NCBI GenBank assembly: GCA_963677925.2
Contig: CAXXYH010000003.1
Location: 768,001 to 832,000, forward strand
Direction: 5' to 3'
DNA length: 64,000 nt
Source: Spirochaetia bacterium
GTDB lineage: Bacteria; Spirochaetota; Spirochaetia; UBA9216
The notes under the pieces are model-generated. The model ran no database searches. It worked only from the letters and a program-made list of their open reading frames with translations, and had not been told where the DNA came from. Positions 1-56,813 of this stretch are shown here, piece by piece (position 1 is the stretch's first letter; every line of letters begins with the position of its first letter). The position numbers and the translations under genes are program-made.

Positions 1-192
1 GAAAATAAAACAGAGCAGAGGATAGACACCGACAGCATCATCTATGCAATAGGCATGAAATCAAATTCATCAACCGTTGAAAAGCTGAGATTCAGTGCGC
101 CGTTATTTTATGAGGTCGGTGACTGTGTTCACCCGAGGCTTATTAAGCAGGCCACATATGAAGGATTCTGCGCTGCTATGGATATTCTATGA
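1..192 (+). CDS. C-terminal fragment of an Fe-S/OYE-type NADH:flavin oxidoreductase (5' end outside window)
   Basis: Frame 1 reads ...DSIIYAIGMKS...YEVGDCVHPRLIKQATYEGFCAAMDIL*, matching the C-termini of the two complete paralogues in this window. Confidence 0.8.
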   Translation, partial: ENKTEQRIDTDSIIYAIGMKSNSSTVEKLRFSAPLFYEVGDCVHPRLIKQATYEGFCAAMDIL

Positions 193-46321: not shown

Positions 46322-46364
46322 CGGAAATGATTTTATATGAAATATAATATAAGAGGAGGATCTT

Positions 46365-47402
46365 ATGAAAAGAAGAACAGGTATTATCCTGTTAACAGCA
46401 GCATTAATTTTCAGCATTGCTGCAGGTAACGTTTTTGCAGGAGGAGATCAGGAAGCTTCATCAGGAGCAGCTGATTCCGGAAAAGTTTACACACTTAAAC
46501 TCGCTCACGGTGTTACTACTTCAGACCCGCTTCAGCCGGCTGCCGAAAAGTTCAAGGAACTTGTAGAAAGCTATACTGAAGGAAGAGTAAAAGTTGAACT
46601 CTATCCTAACGGACAGCTTGGTGATGAGCAGGAAATAGTTCAGTCACTCCGATCAGGCGCTATTGAAGCCGGTATTGTTTATACAGGTAATGCTCAGTCA
46701 CTTGCACCTTCAATCGGTGTTGTTATGCTTCCCTACCTTTTCAAAAACAGTGAAGAAGCATGGTACGCACTTGATGCAGTTGTTCCCGGAATGAACGAAA
46801 GAATTATCAAGGAAGCAGGAATCAGAAACCTCGGTTTCTTTGAAAAAGGATTCAGAGTTCTTACCAATTCTAAAAAACCTGTAGAGACTATTGATGATCT
46901 TAAGGGTCTTAAAATCCGTGTAAGTCCTTCAGAACTACCCATAAAGACTTTCAAGTCCTGGGGAATAGATCCGGTTCCCATGGCATGGGGTGAAGTATTT
47001 ACCGCACTTCAGCAGGGTGTAATTGACGGACAGGAAAACCCTTATACAACTATTCCAGCTGTTAAGTTCGAAGAAGTTCAGAAATACGTAACAGAAATTC
47101 ACTATATGCTTTGGACAGGACCACTTCTTATCAGTGAAAAATTCTACAGCAAACTTCCTGCAGATCTTCAGGAACAGGTAGCAAAAGCCGGAAAGGATGC
47201 AGTAACCTGGGAAAGAGCATTTGCAGCAGGTCTTAAGGACGAAGCTATAAAGAAGTGTATCGATGCAGGAATGATTCTCAGCGGTGCTCCTAAAGATGAA
47301 GAAGTGTGGCAGCAGAATGCTCAGTCAATCTGGCCTGATTTCTACGATGGCGTAGGCGGAAAAGCCTGGGTTGATGAAGCTCTCGGAGTAATGTTCGAAT
47401 AA
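46365..47402 (+). CDS. dctP: TRAP substrate-binding protein
   Basis: Signal peptide, LKGLKIRV, EVFTALQQGVIDGQEN. Confidence 0.93.
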   Translation: MKRRTGIILLTAALIFSIAAGNVFAGGDQEASSGAADSGKVYTLKLAHGVTTSDPLQPAAEKFKELVESYTEGRVKVELYPNGQLGDEQEIVQSLRSGAIEAGIVYTGNAQSLAPSIGVVMLPYLFKNSEEAWYALDAVVPGMNERIIKEAGIRNLGFFEKGFRVLTNSKKPVETIDDLKGLKIRVSPSELPIKTFKSWGIDPVPMAWGEVFTALQQGVIDGQENPYTTIPAVKFEEVQKYVTEIHYMLWTGPLLISEKFYSKLPADLQEQVAKAGKDAVTWERAFAAGLKDEAIKKCIDAGMILSGAPKDEEVWQQNAQSIWPDFYDGVGGKAWVDEALGVMFE

Positions 47403-47511: not shown

Positions 47512-49318
47512 ATGAAAATTTATCCAACTTCAATAATCCACATCACACTATCGATCTTGTTTCTGTTAATTCCATCCACCTATGGTTTTTCCCAGGAAAA
47601 ATCAAGAGTCGCAATTCTTCCATTTGAAGCAAGAGAAGTCTCCCAGTCAGAATCACAGGTAATAACAGAACTTTTTGAAACTGCATTAGTGAAAACAGGT
47701 GTCTATAATATTATCGAACAAAACCAAATTGAAGCCATTGCTGAAGCTCAGGCGTACTCTCTTTCCGGTTGTGTTGACGATTCATGCGCAGTTGAAGTAG
47801 GAAAACTTCTTTCTGCTGAATTGATTGTGATCGGAACCATTTCAAAAGTTGGGAATAAATATATAGCAAATTCCAAGATAATTGATGTTGCCCTGGGAAA
47901 GAATATAAAGGCTGATTCTGTCTCTGCAGATAATCTGGCAGAAATGACTGAAACAAAAATCAGTTTTCTTGCATTTAAACTTGCAGGTCTGACTTATTCT
48001 GAAAATGGAAATGAACAGATAGCCTCTAATTTCGGTGAAATATATGTCGGCACAGACCCACCCGGTGCTGAAGTCTTTGTTAACGGTATGCGTAGAGGAA
48101 CAAGTCCAATGGTGGTAGAGAAAATTCCTTTCGGACAGGTAGTTGTCAATGTAAAGAAAGGGAATATGGTAGCCGAAGGTTCGATCACTATCAATTCCTC
48201 AGATTTAATTGAACTTGATCTAAAATTAGAGGTCGCATTAGGACGTTTGTTTATAAAAAGCAATGATCAAAATCTTATAGTATCACTGGACGAAAGAGAT
48301 CTAGGAGTACTTGGAAGCGGAATATTCCGAGACATAGGCACAGGTGAACACATACTGTCTCTTCGGGGTGAGGGCATGTATTATGAAGAAAGAATCACTA
48401 TAGACGAAGGTAAAAAGGACAACTATTGAGGCATATCCTAGTCCCATAGGTAAAATTTCATATAAACTTCCCGAGGGAGTTCAACTCTCAGTGACAGGAG
48501 GCAGAAACAGTTATAAAAATCTTCAAGGCTCTGGTGAATTAGAAAATGTTTTCACAGGAAGATACAAGCTTAATTTTATCCCTCAGAATGTCTCATTTCC
48601 CGAAGATGAATTACTACTCCTGAAAGGTTCAACATTATCAATTATTCCCGAAGAATATTTCAGGGAGAAAGTTGATAGTATCAACCGAAGCATGAAATCT
48701 CAGGATGACAATTTTTTTAAACTAAACACACAAGCAGCAGAACTGGAGAACGATCTGCATCTGCTTGGTGAAGCAGGAATCAAATACTCAGGAACTGATT
48801 CTATAATCCAGACAATGAAACAGCAATTACAGCTGTATGGGGATATTAAAAGTAAGAGGAATGAATTAAGCGGAATAAATGAACAATTAAGTTCATTAAA
48901 GTCAGAACGTGAAAATATCGAACCTTATTTTAAGAGTGCTAATTTCCAAAAGAATATATATCCATGGATATCAATACCTATCGGCACTGGTTTCCTTGGA
49001 TTAGGTTTTTATACAATAATAGCATCTGCAATAGAAGGATATGATCTTGAGGTTTCAACTATAGTTATTGGAGTAGGAGGTGTCGGTCTGGGAATTACCG
49101 GGCTTGTAACTGGAATTGTATTTGGTGCAGACACATTTGAAGATCCTGGCCCATCTGTTGCATCTGAATACCGTTCTGAAATTATTAAAAAGGGACAAAG
49201 TTTAAATAGATGGCCTGAAATCCAGAATGAAGAACGTGTTCTCACTGAAAAGAAATTTATAGTTGAAAACGAATTAAGCATACTTGAGAATGAATACAAC
49301 ACAGAATATGCGGAGTAG
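47512..49318 (+). pseudogene. Exported CsgG/TolB-N-like plus PEGA-domain membrane protein, split by a +1 frameshift (or a sequence error)
   Basis: GCVDDSCAVEVGK, TDPPGAEVFVNG; deleting one A in AAAAA (48412-48416) joins ORFs 47512-48429 and 48491-49318. Confidence 0.65.
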
Positions 49319-49440: not shown

Positions 49441-50259
49441 TTACCAGCCGCCGGAAGCTCCGCCCCCGCCAAAGCCTCCTCCGCCTCCGGAGAATCCTCC
49501 GAAACCGCCGCCCCCGCCGAAGCCGCTGCTTCCGCCAAAGCCTCCGCGATGAGATCTGCCCGAAGATCCGAGCATAGAACCCCAGAAAAGTGCCGACCAC
49601 AGACTTCCGCGCCGTCCTCTTCTGCCTCCACGCCCGCCTCTACCGATAGAGGACAGGATTATAAAAATAATAAATACAATAAATCCGAACGGAATACCGC
49701 CTCCGCTGCTGGATGAAGAACTCTGTGTTTTTCGGTATTTAGCCAGCTCTTCTTCTGAAATGTCGGAAGTTTGTGTAATAACACCGCTTACCCTTGTAAC
49801 GGCAGCGTATAAGCCTCCGGCATAATCACCGTTCCTAAAGTAAGGAAGCATAACTTCACGGATAATATATCCTGATTTAGCATCAGTCATGACACCTTCA
49901 AGACCGTATCCAACCTCAATTCTGACTTTCTTCTCTCCGGTAGACAGTAAAATCAAAAGACCGTTATCCCTGTCAGCCTGTCCTAGCTTCCATGTTTCTG
50001 CAACCTTCAGCGAATACTCTTCTATAGAAGTGCCTTCAAGACTTTTAACTGTCAGAAGTGCAACCTGAGCAGAGGTGGAACTTTCCAAATCAACAATAAT
50101 CTTCTCTATTTCAGTTTTCTGCGAACGTGAGAGAACTCCTGCATCATCTACAACCGGACCGTCAAGTTTAGGAATGCTCAGACCGAACAGTACCGGCCCC
50201 GTAATAAAAAGAAGTAAACAGACTGCAAGGATTGTTCTAATTTTAATTTTTATTCTCAT
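49441..50259 (-). CDS. TPM-domain protein (YgcG-like) with Gly-rich tail
   Basis: VVDDAGVL, WKLG..DNG, RIEVGYGLEG, FGGGGASGGW. Confidence 0.9.
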   Translation of the reverse strand: MRIKIKIRTILAVCLLLFITGPVLFGLSIPKLDGPVVDDAGVLSRSQKTEIEKIIVDLESSTSAQVALLTVKSLEGTSIEEYSLKVAETWKLGQADRDNGLLILLSTGEKKVRIEVGYGLEGVMTDAKSGYIIREVMLPYFRNGDYAGGLYAAVTRVSGVITQTSDISEEELAKYRKTQSSSSSSGGGIPFGFIVFIIFIILSSIGRGGRGGRRGRRGSLWSALFWGSMLGSSGRSHRGGFGGSSGFGGGGGFGGFSGGGGGFGGGGASGGW

Positions 50260-50262
50260 ACG

Positions 50263-50937
50263 TCAATCCTCCAGGAAAATTATGCCGTCGGGAAGTTCAT
50301 TTATATCGTCTTTTTGAACAGGAAAATGTTTCTCAAGCTCTTCACCGCATTTATTGATAGCCTTTACCAGCCCTGCTGCAGCCTTTCCGGCCTTTATGTC
50401 TGATACAACATCCTTTAAAACAGTATCCCAGAAACCGGGGTCTACTTTTCCGTCAATGCCGCTGTCAGCAAGTATCTCAAGCCGTCTCTCTCTCAGAGAC
50501 AGATAAAATAAGATTCCGGTTCGATCAGCCGTCATACGTATTCCCGATTCGGAAAAACAGGCCAGAGCACGTCTGTGGACCTTTTTACTTATCACTTCTG
50601 AAGGGACTATTATTCTGTCAAAGCCGGGAATATTCGCAAGAAAGTAGAAAATACTGACAACTGCTGCAGTGCTGAGTCCGTAAAAAAGCGGTATCCACCA
50701 CATCTGCGGATTCCAGGTGAATCCGTTTATCCAGGTGCTTACCGGTTTATAGAGAAGCAGCATTACTATGAAATAGACAGCACCTGTAATTAGAGAGAAC
50801 ATCAGCTCATAATAGTTATAATCTGAACTTTCCCTTATAACAGCTGTTACAACCTCACCTGAACTCTTTTTTTCAACAGCAGCCGCAGCCTCATTTATTT
50901 GTTTAATTTCATCATCTGTTAATCTGAATGATTTCAT
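50263..50937 (-). CDS. TPM-domain membrane protein
   Basis: EKKSSGE, RTGILFYLS, ILADSGI, NELPD; typical LemA operon member. Confidence 0.85.
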   Translation of the reverse strand: MKSFRLTDDEIKQINEAAAAVEKKSSGEVVTAVIRESSDYNYYELMFSLITGAVYFIVMLLLYKPVSTWINGFTWNPQMWWIPLFYGLSTAAVVSIFYFLANIPGFDRIIVPSEVISKKVHRRALACFSESGIRMTADRTGILFYLSLRERRLEILADSGIDGKVDPGFWDTVLKDVVSDIKAGKAAAGLVKAINKCGEELEKHFPVQKDDINELPDGIIFLED

Positions 50938-50946
50938 GAAACCTTC

Positions 50947-51555
50947 CTAAAATTCTACTTTCGGAGCAGTTTCTGCACCGCTTGAAGCTTCAAAATACGG
51001 TTTTTCCCTGAAGCCTGAAAGATTGGCAATTATCATCCTGGGGAACTGCTTAATATAAGTGTTATAAGTTCGTACCTGCTCATTGAAACGCTGTCGTTCC
51101 ACTGCTATACGGTTTTCAGTGCCTTCAAGCTGATCCTGCAGTGCCAGAAAGTTCTGATTCGACTTTAATTCAGGATAATTCTCTGTGACAACAAGAAGAC
51201 GCTGGAGAGCCCCGCTTAATTCTCCCTGTGCCTGCTGGAATCTCTCGAATGATTCAGGGTTATTCAGAACTTCGTCGGATATATTCATAACACCCCCGGC
51301 TCTGGATCTGGCCTCGGTAACTGCGGTTAAAGTATCTTTTTCCTGTGCAGCATATCCTTTAACGGTTTCTACAAGATTAGGAATCAGATCAAATCTTCTC
51401 TGATAAACATTTTCAACCTGACTCCAGCTGGATTTTACTCCTTCATCAAGTGCTACCATCCTGTTATAGGTTCCTGCAAATGAACCGTAAATAATAAGGA
51501 CTATAACTACAATAATACCTACCGGGATAAGCCATTTCATGCCCTTTCCTGCCAT
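50947..51555 (-). CDS. lemA: LemA family protein
   Basis: YQRRFDLIPNLVETVKGYA, ENYPELKSN, TENRIAVER. Confidence 0.95.
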   Translation of the reverse strand: MAGKGMKWLIPVGIIVVIVLIIYGSFAGTYNRMVALDEGVKSSWSQVENVYQRRFDLIPNLVETVKGYAAQEKDTLTAVTEARSRAGGVMNISDEVLNNPESFERFQQAQGELSGALQRLLVVTENYPELKSNQNFLALQDQLEGTENRIAVERQRFNEQVRTYNTYIKQFPRMIIANLSGFREKPYFEASSGAETAPKVEF

Positions 51556-51635
51556 TTAAATCTCCTGTAATTTATAAATTATTTTATTTATCAGATTACC
51601 TGATAATACATAGTACAATTAAATACACCGAATAT

Positions 51636-51998
51636 TCACTGCATATTAAGCATAGCGCCGGAAATATAAGGTATAAGCCAGATTATCCAGACAATGATAC
51701 TGAAGCGGTGAAAAGTTTTCTTCATTTTTTCATTTTTTTTGATGATAACAATCGTAGCCCACAAGGCATGAAAAATCATAAGTATTATTGCTATTAAACC
51801 GGTTAAAGCATGCAGATTGAGGCTTATTGCACCGGCAACAGCCGACATAGCTGCAGTTCCGACAGTATCAAAAACAAGCCCGGCCCAGAACATTGAGAGA
51901 TTCCAGACTTTAAGTCCGCCTGACAGTTTTTCACCCCATACTCCGATCGTATAAAAAACCAGGGCCAGTGTTATTGATATAATTGCAGGTATAAGCAA
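51636..51998 (-). CDS. HsmA-family small membrane protein
   Basis: ALVFYTIGVW, FWAGLVFDTVGT, HALTG, HALWA, VWIIWLIPY. Confidence 0.75.
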   Translation of the reverse strand: MLIPAIISITLALVFYTIGVWGEKLSGGLKVWNLSMFWAGLVFDTVGTAAMSAVAGAISLNLHALTGLIAIILMIFHALWATIVIIKKNEKMKKTFHRFSIIVWIIWLIPYISGAMLNMQ

Positions 51999-52084
51999 AT
52001 CGATACTCCTATTGTATCAATATACCTAGTATATTTTTTATAATCAACAAAAGAGATTTCAATTTATTTTGGACATTTTGTGTA

Positions 52085-52113
52085 TTGCAGTGCAGTGTCC
52101 TAGGTTATATAAT
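52085..52113 (+). promoter_or_regulatory. Sigma70-type promoter of the candidate sRNA
   Basis: TTGCAG-17-TATAAT. Confidence 0.7.
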
Positions 52114-52119
52114 CTTATT

Positions 52120-52192
52120 AAGGAAAATTCTGATTCTCCTCTTTCAGGATTTTTCCGGCTGTTCGGGTGTTACCCGGGCAGCCTTTTTTTTT
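52120..52192 (+). ncRNA. Candidate ~72-nt small RNA with an anti-SD loop
   Basis: Hairpin GGAAAATTCTGA/TCAGGATTTTTCC with loop TTCTCCTCTT, then terminator GGCTGTTCGGG/CCCGGGCAGCC and T9; no + strand gene to terminate. Confidence 0.65.
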
Positions 52193-52243
52193 GTCAAATT
52201 CTGCTTTTTAACCTCATTGATTAACAATTATTATATCTGAGTA

Positions 52244-52277
52244 TAAAAAAACCGCCAGCCTATTGGACTGACGGTCT
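52244..52277 (-). terminator. Terminator of the crotonase-family gene
   Basis: A-run followed by an imperfect ACCGCCAGCC...GGACTGACGGT stem. Confidence 0.6.
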
Positions 52278-52297
52278 GAATAATCATAAATATGTGA

Positions 52298-53293
52298 TTA
52301 TTTGATAGCGACTTCGAATTCTCCACCGCCGATTTTTGGTCTAACAACCTTACCCTCTTTTTCTGCAGCCAGAACGAGTCTTGCTTCTTCATGCGCATCG
52401 TCCCAGTATTTTGCCTCATGTGGTGAATGGTCAGTTGCAGTAACCCACATTTCAGAAGCAAAGCTGGCTCTAAGTTCATTTGCAATATCTTCCTTCCATG
52501 GCTTCCTGAGAATCTGAGTTGTAATTCTTCTTGTTGTTCTACCTGCAGCATGCATGATAAGTTCAGCAATTTCCCATGCTCTCTTGTATGCAGCATCAAC
52601 ATCTTCACAGATTTCGTTAATCATTCCATATTCAAGAGCCATTTTTGCTGTGATGATCTGACCGGTAAGCTCTGCATAAGCAAATCTCTTTCTTCCCATC
52701 AGCTCTCTCCATGCAATCTGGATACCGTCACCGGGAACCATGTTTGTTCTGAAGTGCATTTCAGTTGTCCATGCATCCTTTGTTGCTAGTGTGATGTCGC
52801 TGAAAAGAACGAGGTCAGTGTGGTAGGAAGCACCAGTCCATACACCTATTGTAGGAACTTCAAGGTCAAAAATCTGACCTTCGATGTCATTTGTTCCATC
52901 GTAGTACTGGTAATCGTACATCTTCCATGATTCTTCAGGTTCAGAACCGTACTCACGACAGGGCATCCACTCGCCGGTTTCCCTGTTGATTCTTCCAATT
53001 CCCTTGAATACGTCAGGTCCGATACCACCGAGGATGATTACCTCATTATCAGGGTCCCGTCCGGCCCAGTCAAAAAAGTAATGAAGGCCCTGATGAAGCT
53101 CGGCACTCCACTGTACAGGTCCGCCATGTGTATGCATTCTTGCTTCAAGGATTCCGTTCTTTCTTGTCATTTTCAGACAATTTTTCAGCTTCTCTGAATA
53201 CTCTTCGAAAGGCATGTGAGGAATTGTATAGAGTTCCTCATGTGGAATTTCTTTTCTTTTGTTCCAATCTGATTCATAATTGGCTTTAATCAT
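52298..53293 (-). CDS. Crotonase-superfamily protein, 6-oxocamphor hydrolase (beta-diketone hydrolase)-like
   Basis: RMHT, YHTD, HFRTNMVPGDG..IAW, ALEYGMINEI. Confidence 0.75.
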   Translation of the reverse strand: MIKANYESDWNKRKEIPHEELYTIPHMPFEEYSEKLKNCLKMTRKNGILEARMHTHGGPVQWSAELHQGLHYFFDWAGRDPDNEVIILGGIGPDVFKGIGRINRETGEWMPCREYGSEPEESWKMYDYQYYDGTNDIEGQIFDLEVPTIGVWTGASYHTDLVLFSDITLATKDAWTTEMHFRTNMVPGDGIQIAWRELMGRKRFAYAELTGQIITAKMALEYGMINEICEDVDAAYKRAWEIAELIMHAAGRTTRRITTQILRKPWKEDIANELRASFASEMWVTATDHSPHEAKYWDDAHEEARLVLAAEKEGKVVRPKIGGGEFEVAIK

Positions 53294-53553: not shown

Positions 53554-56292
53554 CTACTTGGTTTTCAGATTAAAAACACCATCCCAGTTTGCAGGAGGAG
53601 CCTTTCTCTGATGATCTATACAGCGCTTGATATAAATTCCTGAGGGGCCGTCATCCGGTATAAGCTCTGTAACATTTCTAAACAGCTCAAGAGCATCCTG
53701 CCAGTCCTTGTTTTCAAAATGAAAAAGACCTCTGTGAAAGATATCCACAGCTTCAATCATTTTTTCATCCGCATATTCTGTTTCATCAATAAGTTCATAC
53801 AGTCTCACTGGTTCATTTATGCCGACTACGCGAACCCTGTCAAGTTTACGAAGCAGGAATTCATCACCTATTTCCTCAGCAGTTGATGCACTTATAAGCT
53901 TCCAGCATTCATACTGCTTGTTGACACCTTCAAGCCTGGCAGCAAGGTTAACAGAATTACCCATTATTGTGTAATCCATTTTTTTGGCGGTACCCATATT
54001 TCCGACAACCATATTGCCTGTATTGACGCCTATTCTTGTCAGCATATCTGTATCTATCAAACCTTCTTCTCTTAGCTTACTGTTAAGAATTACTTCTTCT
54101 TTCTTCATCCTTACTGCGGCACGGCATGCCCTGACCGCATGATCAGAGAAATCAACAGGAGCTCCAAAGAAGGCAATAATTGCATCACCCTCATATTTGT
54201 CTATGGTCCCCCCCTGCTCCATTATTATGTTGCTCATTGCGGTAAGATACTTATTAAGGAGATTTACAAGCTCACCGGGAGCCATATTTTCTGAAAAAGT
54301 GGAGAATCCCTTTATATCGGTGAACATGGCTGTCATATGCTTTTCAACGCCGCCAAGCTGCAGATCATCACGGTCCTTTATAAGATTTTCAATAACAGCA
54401 GGGGCCAGATAATGACCGAATGCATTCCTTATATAACTTTTTTCCTTGGCTGTCTCAACAAACTTCATAAAACTCATAAATATAAAGATTCCGAAAACAG
54501 AAAGAACCGGAGCAAGCAAGTGTATGTAAACTCCAAGCAGGAGAAAGACAGCAACCTCAGCACCCGCAATTATAAGGATGGTTACGATGCCCCATATGAT
54601 CGACGGTCTGGCATCCAGCTTTCTGATTATGAGGATCAGCATCAATGAGAACAGAACAGCTATTGCTATAGAGATCCACTCCGGGGCATCATCAAGAAAT
54701 GAATCCTGGATAATCATATTCATCAAAGAGGCATGGGTTCCTACGTTTGCATATTCCTTTGAAAACGGATTAACTCCGCGATCAAATGTCGATGTAGCAG
54801 AAGAACCTATTATGCAGAAGGAGCCTTCCACACTGCTTTTGATAATATCCCTTGTCTTTATATAATCTTCAAAAATAGCGCGGACCTGTCCAAAGTTTGT
54901 CTTAACCTGCCGTGCTATAGAGGTATATTCAGCTATTTCATCCTCAGAGAGTCCTTCTGTGGAAAGTATATCTTCTATCTGAGCTGAAATTACAGCTTCG
55001 GTATCGCCGTTCAGGAATTTATCAACCTCCGAAAAGAAATACTCCCTTGAATCACGGTAATCGGCAAAGTAATCAAGATCGCCGCCGTTGAGGATTTCGG
55101 TACGGATTGACTGCGCATATTCATATCCTGCAAAAATATCTGGATCGCCATTGTAATAATAAAAATACTGATCATCTTCAAGCAGTTTAAGATTTTTTAT
55201 CAGGTCGGCTTCCTGCCAGTCATGCAGAACAAGATAATAGAACGAAAGATGTCTGAAACTGTCCATGTAATCCTTTGCAGGCCAATTAATAAGAACTGTA
55301 CCGTCTTCTGCTCTGGGGATAGTAATATCCTTTTTAACACCGGTACCGGGAATTTCAGCATCCTTAAAAACGATTTCTCTGTCAGTCAGTTCAACATGGG
55401 GTCTGCCCAGCCAGTCAAGGAATGGAGTCATCACAAGCTGGGGAAAATATTTCCCTTCATATTCAATAAATGTATCTATCCGGCGTCTCACACCATCCGG
55501 ATCTATTATAATATTCGGGAACCCTGCCCCCATAGAATTCTGATACAGCAGTTCAAGGGCAGGATCAATACTTACGGATTTTTTTATATTTTCCGTCTCT
55601 ACCGAAATATCATCATAGGGGATATTTTCCATAATCCATTTTCTGAATGATTCGTCTATTACCACTTCATCAAGCATCTGCATATTCACAGTAAAGTAAA
55701 CATCACCATACAGCCTCGAGGCCTGTGCAAAGTATTCATCATTGTCTTTTGTAATATACTGGACTCTTTCAAGAAGCAAATCTCTGGTCTGGTGTCGTTA
55801 AGATCAGCAAGTTCCAATATATAGTCTGAAGCCTCTTCTATTGAAAGGGAACCGGCTGCCACAGCAGCAAATAATTCGATTATGTTGTCGTTTATTATCT
55901 CAAAGTTCTCATCAAATACAGCCGTGGAGTTCACTGTTAAGATAATCAGGATCAACAGCCACAGGACTTTTCTGAATATACTCAATATCAAAAACAGCAG
56001 CTCCTGAACCAAGCTCTTTCATGGTGATAAGCCCGTCTGCCACAATATTCCTGCTCCAGGGCCAGACTCCGACCTTCTCGATGGATGTGTCATCAATATC
56101 GACAAGTAATATCCTGTCATCTTCCGGGATTTCATTCTTAACCTTCAGCAGCGTGTCATACAGACGGTTTTCAAGTCTGTCAAAACCTCCGAAAAGCGAT
56201 ATGAAAGAAAGAGCTATTACTATCAGAATTGCAACAATGACTTTATAATCCACTTTACCATCCCAAAATCTGTATTTAAAAATTGAAAGCAA
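53554..56292 (-). pseudogene. CHASE2-domain class III adenylate cyclase, interrupted by two indels (or sequence errors)
   Basis: LVDIDD..GVWPWSR, FDIEY, DPDGVRRR; FTDIKGFS, DKYEGDA, YTIMGNSVNLAARLE; three overlapping ORFs joined by shifts near 55925 and 55788. Confidence 0.8.
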
Positions 56293-56348: not shown

Positions 56349-56813
56349 ATGCAAAAAATTAAAGTTTTTCTAAGCATCGTATTTCTGGTATTTATTTCTT
56401 CCGTATTTCAACTTTATGCACAATCAGCGGAAATCATAGACAACATTATTGAATCGCAGGGTATCAGCTATGGTGAAGCATCATATCTTGCCGCACTGGG
56501 TACTGGCCTTGCTGATGATGAAGCAGATATTCAAACAGCTTTTACTATTATGAGCAGCAGAGATTTTAACAAAAATTCAAAAACCGCTGATCAGCCGGCA
56601 ACTCTTGGTGAGTTCGCTTATTTACTTATGGAATCTCTGGAGATTAAGGGCGGACTGATGTACAGTTTGTTTCCCTCGCCTCGGTATGCAGTACGAGAAC
56701 TTGTATATCTTGGTATCATTGACTTTGAAGCACATCCGGGAAACAAGCTCAGAGGGACAGATGCCCTGAACATGCTTTCAGAATTATTAAGCCTGCAGGA
56801 GGCTGAACAGTGA
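56349..56813 (+). CDS. Exported hypothetical protein
   Basis: Signal peptide, GGLMYSLFPSPRYA motif; overlaps the next gene (GTGA). Confidence 0.7.
   Translation: MQKIKVFLSIVFLVFISSVFQLYAQSAEIIDNIIESQGISYGEASYLAALGTGLADDEADIQTAFTIMSSRDFNKNSKTADQPATLGEFAYLLMESLEIKGGLMYSLFPSPRYAVRELVYLGIIDFEAHPGNKLRGTDALNMLSELLSLQEAEQ

Follow-up and report, generated by a model that had tools for sequence, protein, structure and literature searches.

Introduction

Among the described RNAs closest to the locus considered here, RoxS/RsaE and FsrA work without Hfq and mmgR carries an anti-Shine-Dalgarno-like motif, and sponges of the protein CsrA (CsrB/RsmZ type) bear many GGA motifs in hairpin loops or single strands. 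According to the accessible part of the literature on the Bacillales RNAs RoxS/RsaE and FsrA, which are short, terminator-ended and trans-encoded, the C-rich single strands of RoxS and FsrA bind Shine-Dalgarno (SD) sites and translation is lowered (PMC10433868). The cuckoo RNAs of the Alphaproteobacteria (CcsR/RSs0680/SmelC397 type) are made up, in the portion of their description that is available, of 2 to 4 adjacent hairpins, each with the anti-SD-like motif CCUCCUCCC in its loop, and have variable stems and a sequence little conserved past the genus (PMC4615179).

The locus described here is a candidate unit at positions 52085-52192 on the + strand of a window of 64,000 nt (the whole stretch of DNA that was analysed, to whose coordinates all positions refer unless a contig is named), in a spirochaete genome of 5.04 Mb with 4 contigs and 40-43% G+C by contig. 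To our knowledge, few regulatory RNAs have been characterised in spirochaetes outside Borrelia and Leptospira. Literature searches for spirochaete sRNAs yielded mainly transcriptome and CsrA studies in these two genera (e.g. PMC5314773), which in their accessible parts describe no such RNA.

Regarding the Bacillales sRNAs, the candidate shares with RoxS/RsaE and FsrA, as these are described in the accessible part of that work, an exposed pyrimidine-rich segment facing G-rich SD sequences (PMC10433868), but it matches them in neither sequence nor structure, has one CU-rich loop (CUCCUC) rather than several CCC(C) motifs and occurs in a different phylum. Outside its terminator stem the candidate contains no run of three or more C, the feature of RoxS/RsaE in the available portion of the same account (PMC10433868), and RsaE gave no row in the local Rfam scan at E values up to 10. 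The likeness to cuckoo RNAs lies in the anti-SD-like loop motif; however, the candidate has a single non-terminator hairpin with the loop UUCUCCUCUU in place of CCUCCUCCC, a terminator with the loop GUU, and a spirochaete host, and the cuckoo family definition, as given in the accessible text (PMC4615179), does not cover it. Of the sRNA families in the local Rfam list, mmgR (RF00519, where it is named suhB) alone gave a weak + strand match that covers the greater part of the RNA together with its loop (52131-52198), but its 16.2 bits (E = 0.64) fall short of the gathering score of 41 and make it no match.

Architecture of the candidate unit

The elements of the unit, together with the flanking genes and the ribosome-binding site proposed as its target, are listed in Table 1. 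As read from the sequence, the two promoter hexamers combined agree with the consensus at 9 of 12 positions, and no TG extension was seen by eye ahead of the -10 hexamer. That sigma-70-type promoters apply in the host follows from the TTGACA-17/18-TAnnnT elements that precede tRNA-like sequences in its genome. The original prediction had called the promoter of the unit near-consensus, a description that holds for its perfect -10 hexamer only and is too generous for the -35 hexamer, and since the promoter scan demanded at least 4/6 in each hexamer, the scan missed the candidate promoter on account of this -35. The other parts that had been described in advance were recovered, including a hairpin of about 12 bp with its loop at the given place, a GC-rich terminator followed by nine T, and a separate terminator for the convergent gene; the terminator stem, which had been put at 11 bp, comprises 12 pairs in the terminator scan.

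Table 1. Features of the candidate unit, its neighbors and the proposed target site within the 64,000-nt window.
Feature	Position	Strand	Properties
-35 hexamer TTGCAG	52085-52090	+	3/6 to TTGACA; identical in sister species; absent from promoter-scan output
-10 hexamer TATAAT	52108-52113	+	6/6; 17-base spacer from -35; identical in sister species
Predicted RNA, about 70-73 nt	52120-52192	+	start predicted at A 52120/52121 by spacing from -10
Hairpin 1	52122-52155	+	12 pairs including 2 G.U; -10.7 kcal/mol alone
10-base loop UUCUCCUCUU	52134-52143	+	complements GGAG-type SD sites; identical in sister species
Intrinsic terminator stem	52157-52183	+	12 pairs, 8 G-C, 2 U.G; loop GUU; -20.7 kcal/mol; listed by terminator scan
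U9 tail	52184-52192	+	U7 in sister species
Terminator of convergent ECH-fold gene	52277-52249	-	outside the unit; listed by terminator scan
120-aa membrane protein, no Pfam family	51636-51998	-	first gene of LemA/TPM/TPM cluster
331-aa enoyl-CoA hydratase (ECH)-fold protein	52298-53293	-	convergent neighbor
Proposed dctP ribosome-binding site AAGAGGAGGATC	46351-46362	+	just ahead of dctP ATG at 46365

Folded as RNA, the + strand of 52120-52192 gave -33.8 kcal/mol (z = -6.59), a value that none of 200 shuffled sequences equalled, and the predicted fold consists of exactly two hairpins in both the minimum-energy and the centroid structure, with a single base separating hairpin 1 from the terminator stem. 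In the computed fold, the probability that all 10 bases of the loop are unpaired is 0.997. The reverse strand folds at -25.9 kcal/mol only, with interior loops replacing the wobble pairs and a weakened terminator stem, and all four wobble pairs (two in hairpin 1 and two in the terminator) read as G.U on the + strand, in agreement with the earlier claim that they fit this strand alone. An antiterminator or attenuator arrangement was considered and rejected, as inspection by eye revealed no way for hairpin 1 and the terminator to pair with each other instead, and both predicted folds keep the two hairpins.

The unit thus has features of the sRNA class, namely a predicted promoter of its own, an intrinsic terminator of its own and, in substance, no coding frame, and its architecture as read from the sequence supports a self-contained, strand-specific, non-coding transcription unit with a predicted promoter and a product of about 72 nt.

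Homologs and sequence conservation

Within the whole window, no match to Rfam 15 reached a gathering score, and for the region 51950-52320 the 17 listed matches were all below threshold, the best on the + strand being U7 snRNA with 19.9 against 34 bits; the RNA can accordingly still be called undescribed, as had been proposed. Regarding paralogs, BLAST against the genome itself gave short chance matches only (E of 0.1 or worse). The set of species examined holds one congener of the host, referred to here as the sister species, and BLAST of 60 relatives detected the unit in this sister species only, where it is 95% identical and its context is the same. The two copies were used to build a covariance model, which was run over 101 genomes of the class and, with laxer filters, over 11 genomes of the family; it scored 108 and 105.5 bits for the copies themselves and at most 33.4 bits elsewhere, and those of the lesser alignments that were read were generic GGCUG...CAGCC-U terminators without the CU-rich loop. 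Neither BLAST nor the covariance model found the unit in the 9 other genomes of the family or in 90 further genomes of the class. The 120-aa neighbor has orthologs in 2 of these 9 family genomes (55-59% identity), where different genes lie beside it and the unit is absent.

Two pattern searches extended the survey, although searches of this kind may omit records of the genome from which the window comes. A pattern of 18 bases (the loop and 4 stem pairs) occurred at 46 loci in 185,579 species genomes, one of which, in the sister species, is a true homolog, while the other 45 match the 18 bases or little beyond. A gapped pattern (the loop, GGC...GCC and T6) occurred at 19 loci in metagenome contigs, among which there was no homolog, the best scoring 17 bits; diverged loops would escape both searches, because the exact loop was demanded.

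In the comparison with the sister species, 2 of the 106 aligned bases of promoter and RNA together are substituted, whereas in the adjoining spacer 17 of 191 are (Fisher p = 0.023). The promoter is unchanged over 29 bases, with the -35 hexamer, spacer and -10 hexamer all identical, and the predicted RNA differs by 1 substitution in 71 aligned bases in addition to a 2-base difference in the length of the T-run. The only change in hairpin 1, U to C at 52154, turns a G.U pair into G-C and the fold into one of -36.7 rather than -33.8 kcal/mol. The promoter and hairpin 1 are thus conserved like the terminator, which the surrounding spacer is not. The lower divergence of the unit relative to its flanks is suggestive of constraint, with 19 substitutions in one close comparison as its basis, and conservation is of little power here because the local segments counted are 91-99% identical between the two species. 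The search for paralogs and covariation named in the original prediction gave no paralogs and one homolog, whose single change in hairpin 1 preserves the pairing and whose loop is identical.

Genomic context and chance occurrence

As had been stated, the unit lies on the + strand between two genes of the - strand (Table 1), and it is therefore divergent from one operon, whose promoter region it adjoins, and convergent with the other gene. The listing of frames in the surroundings contains no + strand gene that the unit could terminate or lead into; the next sizeable + strand frame downstream of the unit begins at 56349. The cluster on the upstream side (49441-51998, - strand) comprises the 120-aa membrane protein, LemA and two proteins with TPM domains. 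Past the ECH-fold gene, a 741-aa CHASE2 adenylate/guanylate cyclase is encoded at 53554-55779 on the - strand. A role of the unit as a sigma-54 upstream activating site for the divergent operon was rejected, as no TGGCAC-N5-TTGC-like site was found by eye on the - strand of 51999-52090.

Regarding the frequency of such elements in the genome, 248 strict terminators were found, 197 of them behind a co-directional gene, 24 inside called genes and 27 orphans, defined as having no co-directional gene within 300 bases upstream. Most of the 27 orphans have another explanation, since at least 5 are preceded by a tRNA-like sequence and several, by reading, are two-way terminators or stand behind short unannotated frames. 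Among these orphans, the terminator of the unit is second in stem length and first in number of G-C pairs, and it ends in a U9 tail. In about 678 kb of spacer, with both strands counted, there are 170 occurrences of the motif TTGnnn-16..18-TATAAT (1.25e-4 per strand-base).

An orphan terminator could also serve as an insulator rather than end a gene of its own, keeping spurious + strand transcripts, whether they arise in the divergent promoter region or at antisense starts, from running antisense into the ECH-fold gene, with the hairpin and the promoter-like site being incidental. Convergent gene ends often bear terminators for both strands, and here two terminators face one another across 52157-52277; the poor -35 hexamer and the abundance of TATAAT in AT-rich spacers (1574 matches) fit such an explanation as well. 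It is nevertheless unlikely, given that the upstream neighbor is on the - strand and leaves no + strand gene to be terminated (leaving aside frames nested antisense in larger - strand genes, the closest upstream + strand frame of at least 100 aa ends at 49318), that the promoter and hairpin 1 share the conservation of the terminator in the sister species while the spacer does not, and that a stable hairpin 2 bases past the predicted start, with an exposed CU-rich loop, would be left unexplained.

Loop pairing and predicted targets

The 3' end of the host 16S rRNA reads GGAUCACCUCCUUUC, and GGAG or GAGG lies upstream of 56% of the rough gene calls, from which it follows that the host uses SD sites. 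The gene set consists of 4288 rough calls made for this analysis, some of them with wrong starts, and the chance and target figures depend on it. The loop was also considered as a likeness of the 3' tail of the 16S rRNA, which was rejected, as the ungapped match extends over CUCCU only and a better one needs two gaps.

The original prediction had paired 52132-52143 with the ribosome-binding site of dctP over 12 contiguous pairs including one G-U, and this pairing is correct at the site given in Table 1. It had also cautioned that anti-SD pairing is generic and the target tentative, which is borne out by the counts for the gene set, in which 34 of the 4288 gene calls have an upstream site that pairs with all 10 loop bases, 801 of 4288 pair with at least 7 of them, and pairing over at least 12 contiguous bases is found for 22 genes. 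When genes are ordered by the energy of their duplex with the 20-base apical segment, dctP comes 60th of 4288, and transporter components account for 1 of the 12 best predicted targets, so that the proposal of dctP or transporter mRNAs as targets is not supported. The dctP match is real, yet it is not distinctive, and dctP is not favored as a target.

Specificity was assessed with a control in which the CUCCUC core was kept fixed and its flanks were shuffled 40 times. At or below -20 kcal/mol, 28 targets were predicted against 22.9 +/- 11.5 for the shuffled flanks, with 14 of the 40 shuffles reaching 28, while at or below -24 kcal/mol the numbers were 7 against 1.3 +/- 1.7, with 1 of the 40 shuffles reaching 7. 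Enrichment of targets is thus limited to the extreme tail. This excess may possibly arise because in the 16S tail, too, the core is followed by UUUC, as it is in the native RNA, which would favor extended sites of the type GAAAGGAG. The best 12 predicted targets are a CheA-like kinase, an unnamed 63-aa frame, a PPDK_N/receiver protein, an E1 dehydrogenase, an unnamed 850-aa protein, TatD, a flagellar/T3SS-type ATPase, an NAD epimerase, MsrAB, an ABC permease, NrdD and an unnamed 175-aa protein, and no function is common to these 12.

Proposed function and alternative interpretations

Taken together, the unit is plausibly an undescribed, genus-restricted sRNA gene of a known kind, in which a CU-rich loop is directed against SD sites. 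A discrete RNA is probably made from it, and a rough probability of 0.45 is assigned to the fuller reading, namely that such an RNA exists and acts through pairing at ribosome-binding sites. RNA polymerase would start about 7 bases past the perfect -10 hexamer, near 52120, and transcription would end at the strong intrinsic terminator to give an RNA of about 72 nt with two hairpins, the first of which is predicted to present a fully unpaired CU-rich loop of 10 bases, UUCUCCUCUU. This loop would then pair with SD sequences of the GGAG type, and the pairing would bar the 30S subunit and so lower translation of the set of mRNAs with well-matching sites. Neither Hfq nor ProQ was found in the host genome with Pfam models, so the seed displayed in the loop would act without either protein, like Gram-positive sRNAs with C-rich loops. 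If transcribed, the unit would represent a compact loop-seed sRNA needing neither Hfq nor ProQ in an uncultured genus of Spirochaetia. As a single candidate that is uncharacterised and pairs generically, it is of worth as a lead for transcriptome work rather than as a finding of its own.

Regarding other modes of action, a real small RNA might instead titrate an RNA-binding protein such as CsrA, or pair with one specific site other than an SD sequence. CsrA is encoded in the host (90.8 bits with the Pfam model, two Jag_N proteins resembling KhpB being present as well), the RNA contains two GGA motifs (52122-52124 and 52147-52149), and the generic pairing of the loop yields no clear regulon. 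Titration or pairing of this sort is quite unlikely, however, given that there are two such motifs only and that both are paired within the stem of hairpin 1, which differs from the CsrB/RsmZ type even though CsrA is encoded, and that the CU-rich loop is the sole fully exposed segment of the RNA.

The favored reading of an sRNA acting at ribosome-binding sites has also to be weighed against a non-functional relic or chance combination, for example the remnant 3' end of a + strand gene since lost, lying next to a fortuitous -10 hexamer, for which there would have been little time to diverge. The occurrence in two closely related species only, the limited power that conservation has at their level of local identity, and a target analysis without functional signal are all compatible with a relic. 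Its probability is nonetheless small in view of the difference in substitutions between unit and flanks, of a hairpin change that keeps the pairing, of wobble pairs that all favor the + strand, and of a promoter motif that would be expected in only about 1% of 100-base windows.

A small-protein gene is extremely improbable: two mechanical 51-aa frames with TTG starts do cross the unit (52069-52224 and 52085-52240), contrary to the letter of the earlier statement that it contains no ORF, but that statement holds in substance because both frames open at or before the -35 hexamer, continue through the terminator stem and the U-tract, and are shifted in the sister species, where the T-run differs in length by 2 bases, and no ATG was read in the sequence between the -10 hexamer and the terminator.

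A second CU-rich unit and additional observations

A second orphan unit lies outside the window on contig C4 of the host genome (G000:C4:2531717-2531838, the same as L110:918-1039 on the + strand), between genes of the - strand. It has a promoter TTGCTT-17-TAATAT, a 5' hairpin, a long exposed tract, ACCUCCUUUUUUUUACUUCUUCUCCUUUUUUU, and a terminator of 13 pairs, and its RNA opens with AGGAA. The tract includes ACCUCCUUU, the same nine bases as are found in the 3' tail of the host 16S rRNA. The copy of the C4 unit in the sister species is 100% identical, and copies with 76-87% identity exist in 4 of the 6 genomes of a second genus; the unit is conserved in 5 of the 10 other genomes of the family. 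In its terminator, 6 of the 13 pairs are changed on both sides (compensatory changes), and 97.7% of cells are paired in the C4 unit against 44-62% when the partners are slid. On the + strand it gave no Rfam match at E values up to 1.

Both units are orphan promoter-terminator units with an exposed CU-rich tract and no Rfam match, but the tract of the C4 unit is a long linear segment and not a loop, and neither BLAST nor the covariance model found alignable similarity between the two. The C4 unit is the stronger sRNA candidate. If both units are what they appear to be, they would suggest recurring CU-rich anti-SD regulators in this lineage. It may be speculated further, as a very unlikely extension, that the lineage, in which Pfam models find no Hfq or ProQ, uses orphan RNAs as anti-SD mimics that compete with the 3' tail of the 16S rRNA for strong SD sites and so tune translation globally, with the window unit and its CUCCUC loop as a young, genus-specific member and the C4 unit as an older one.

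Several other elements were observed outside the window. At G000:C3:1739808-1739902 (+), the 3' end of a gene for a 364-aa protein on the + strand consists of a hairpin, then UUUCCUCCUCUUUUUUCUCCU and then a strong terminator, which possibly represents a CU-rich RNA derived from a 3' UTR. At G000:C3:2080170-2080330 (-), TTGACT-16-TATAAT is followed by GGAG, by an ATG opening a frame of about 29 codons and by an orphan terminator, and this may possibly be an unannotated small protein gene. Three metagenome contigs (L098:72-87, L101:599-614 and L103:599-614) have in common GGATTCTCCTCTTTCC followed by a GGC...GCC-T6 hairpin, probably either one recurrent element or a ribosome-binding site of the opposite strand beside a two-way terminator. 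Another genome of this class contains, at G072:C1:2259483-2260084, a tandem array of a hairpin-bearing unit, in which four terminator-like matches of equal score follow one another on both strands at intervals of exactly 185 bases.
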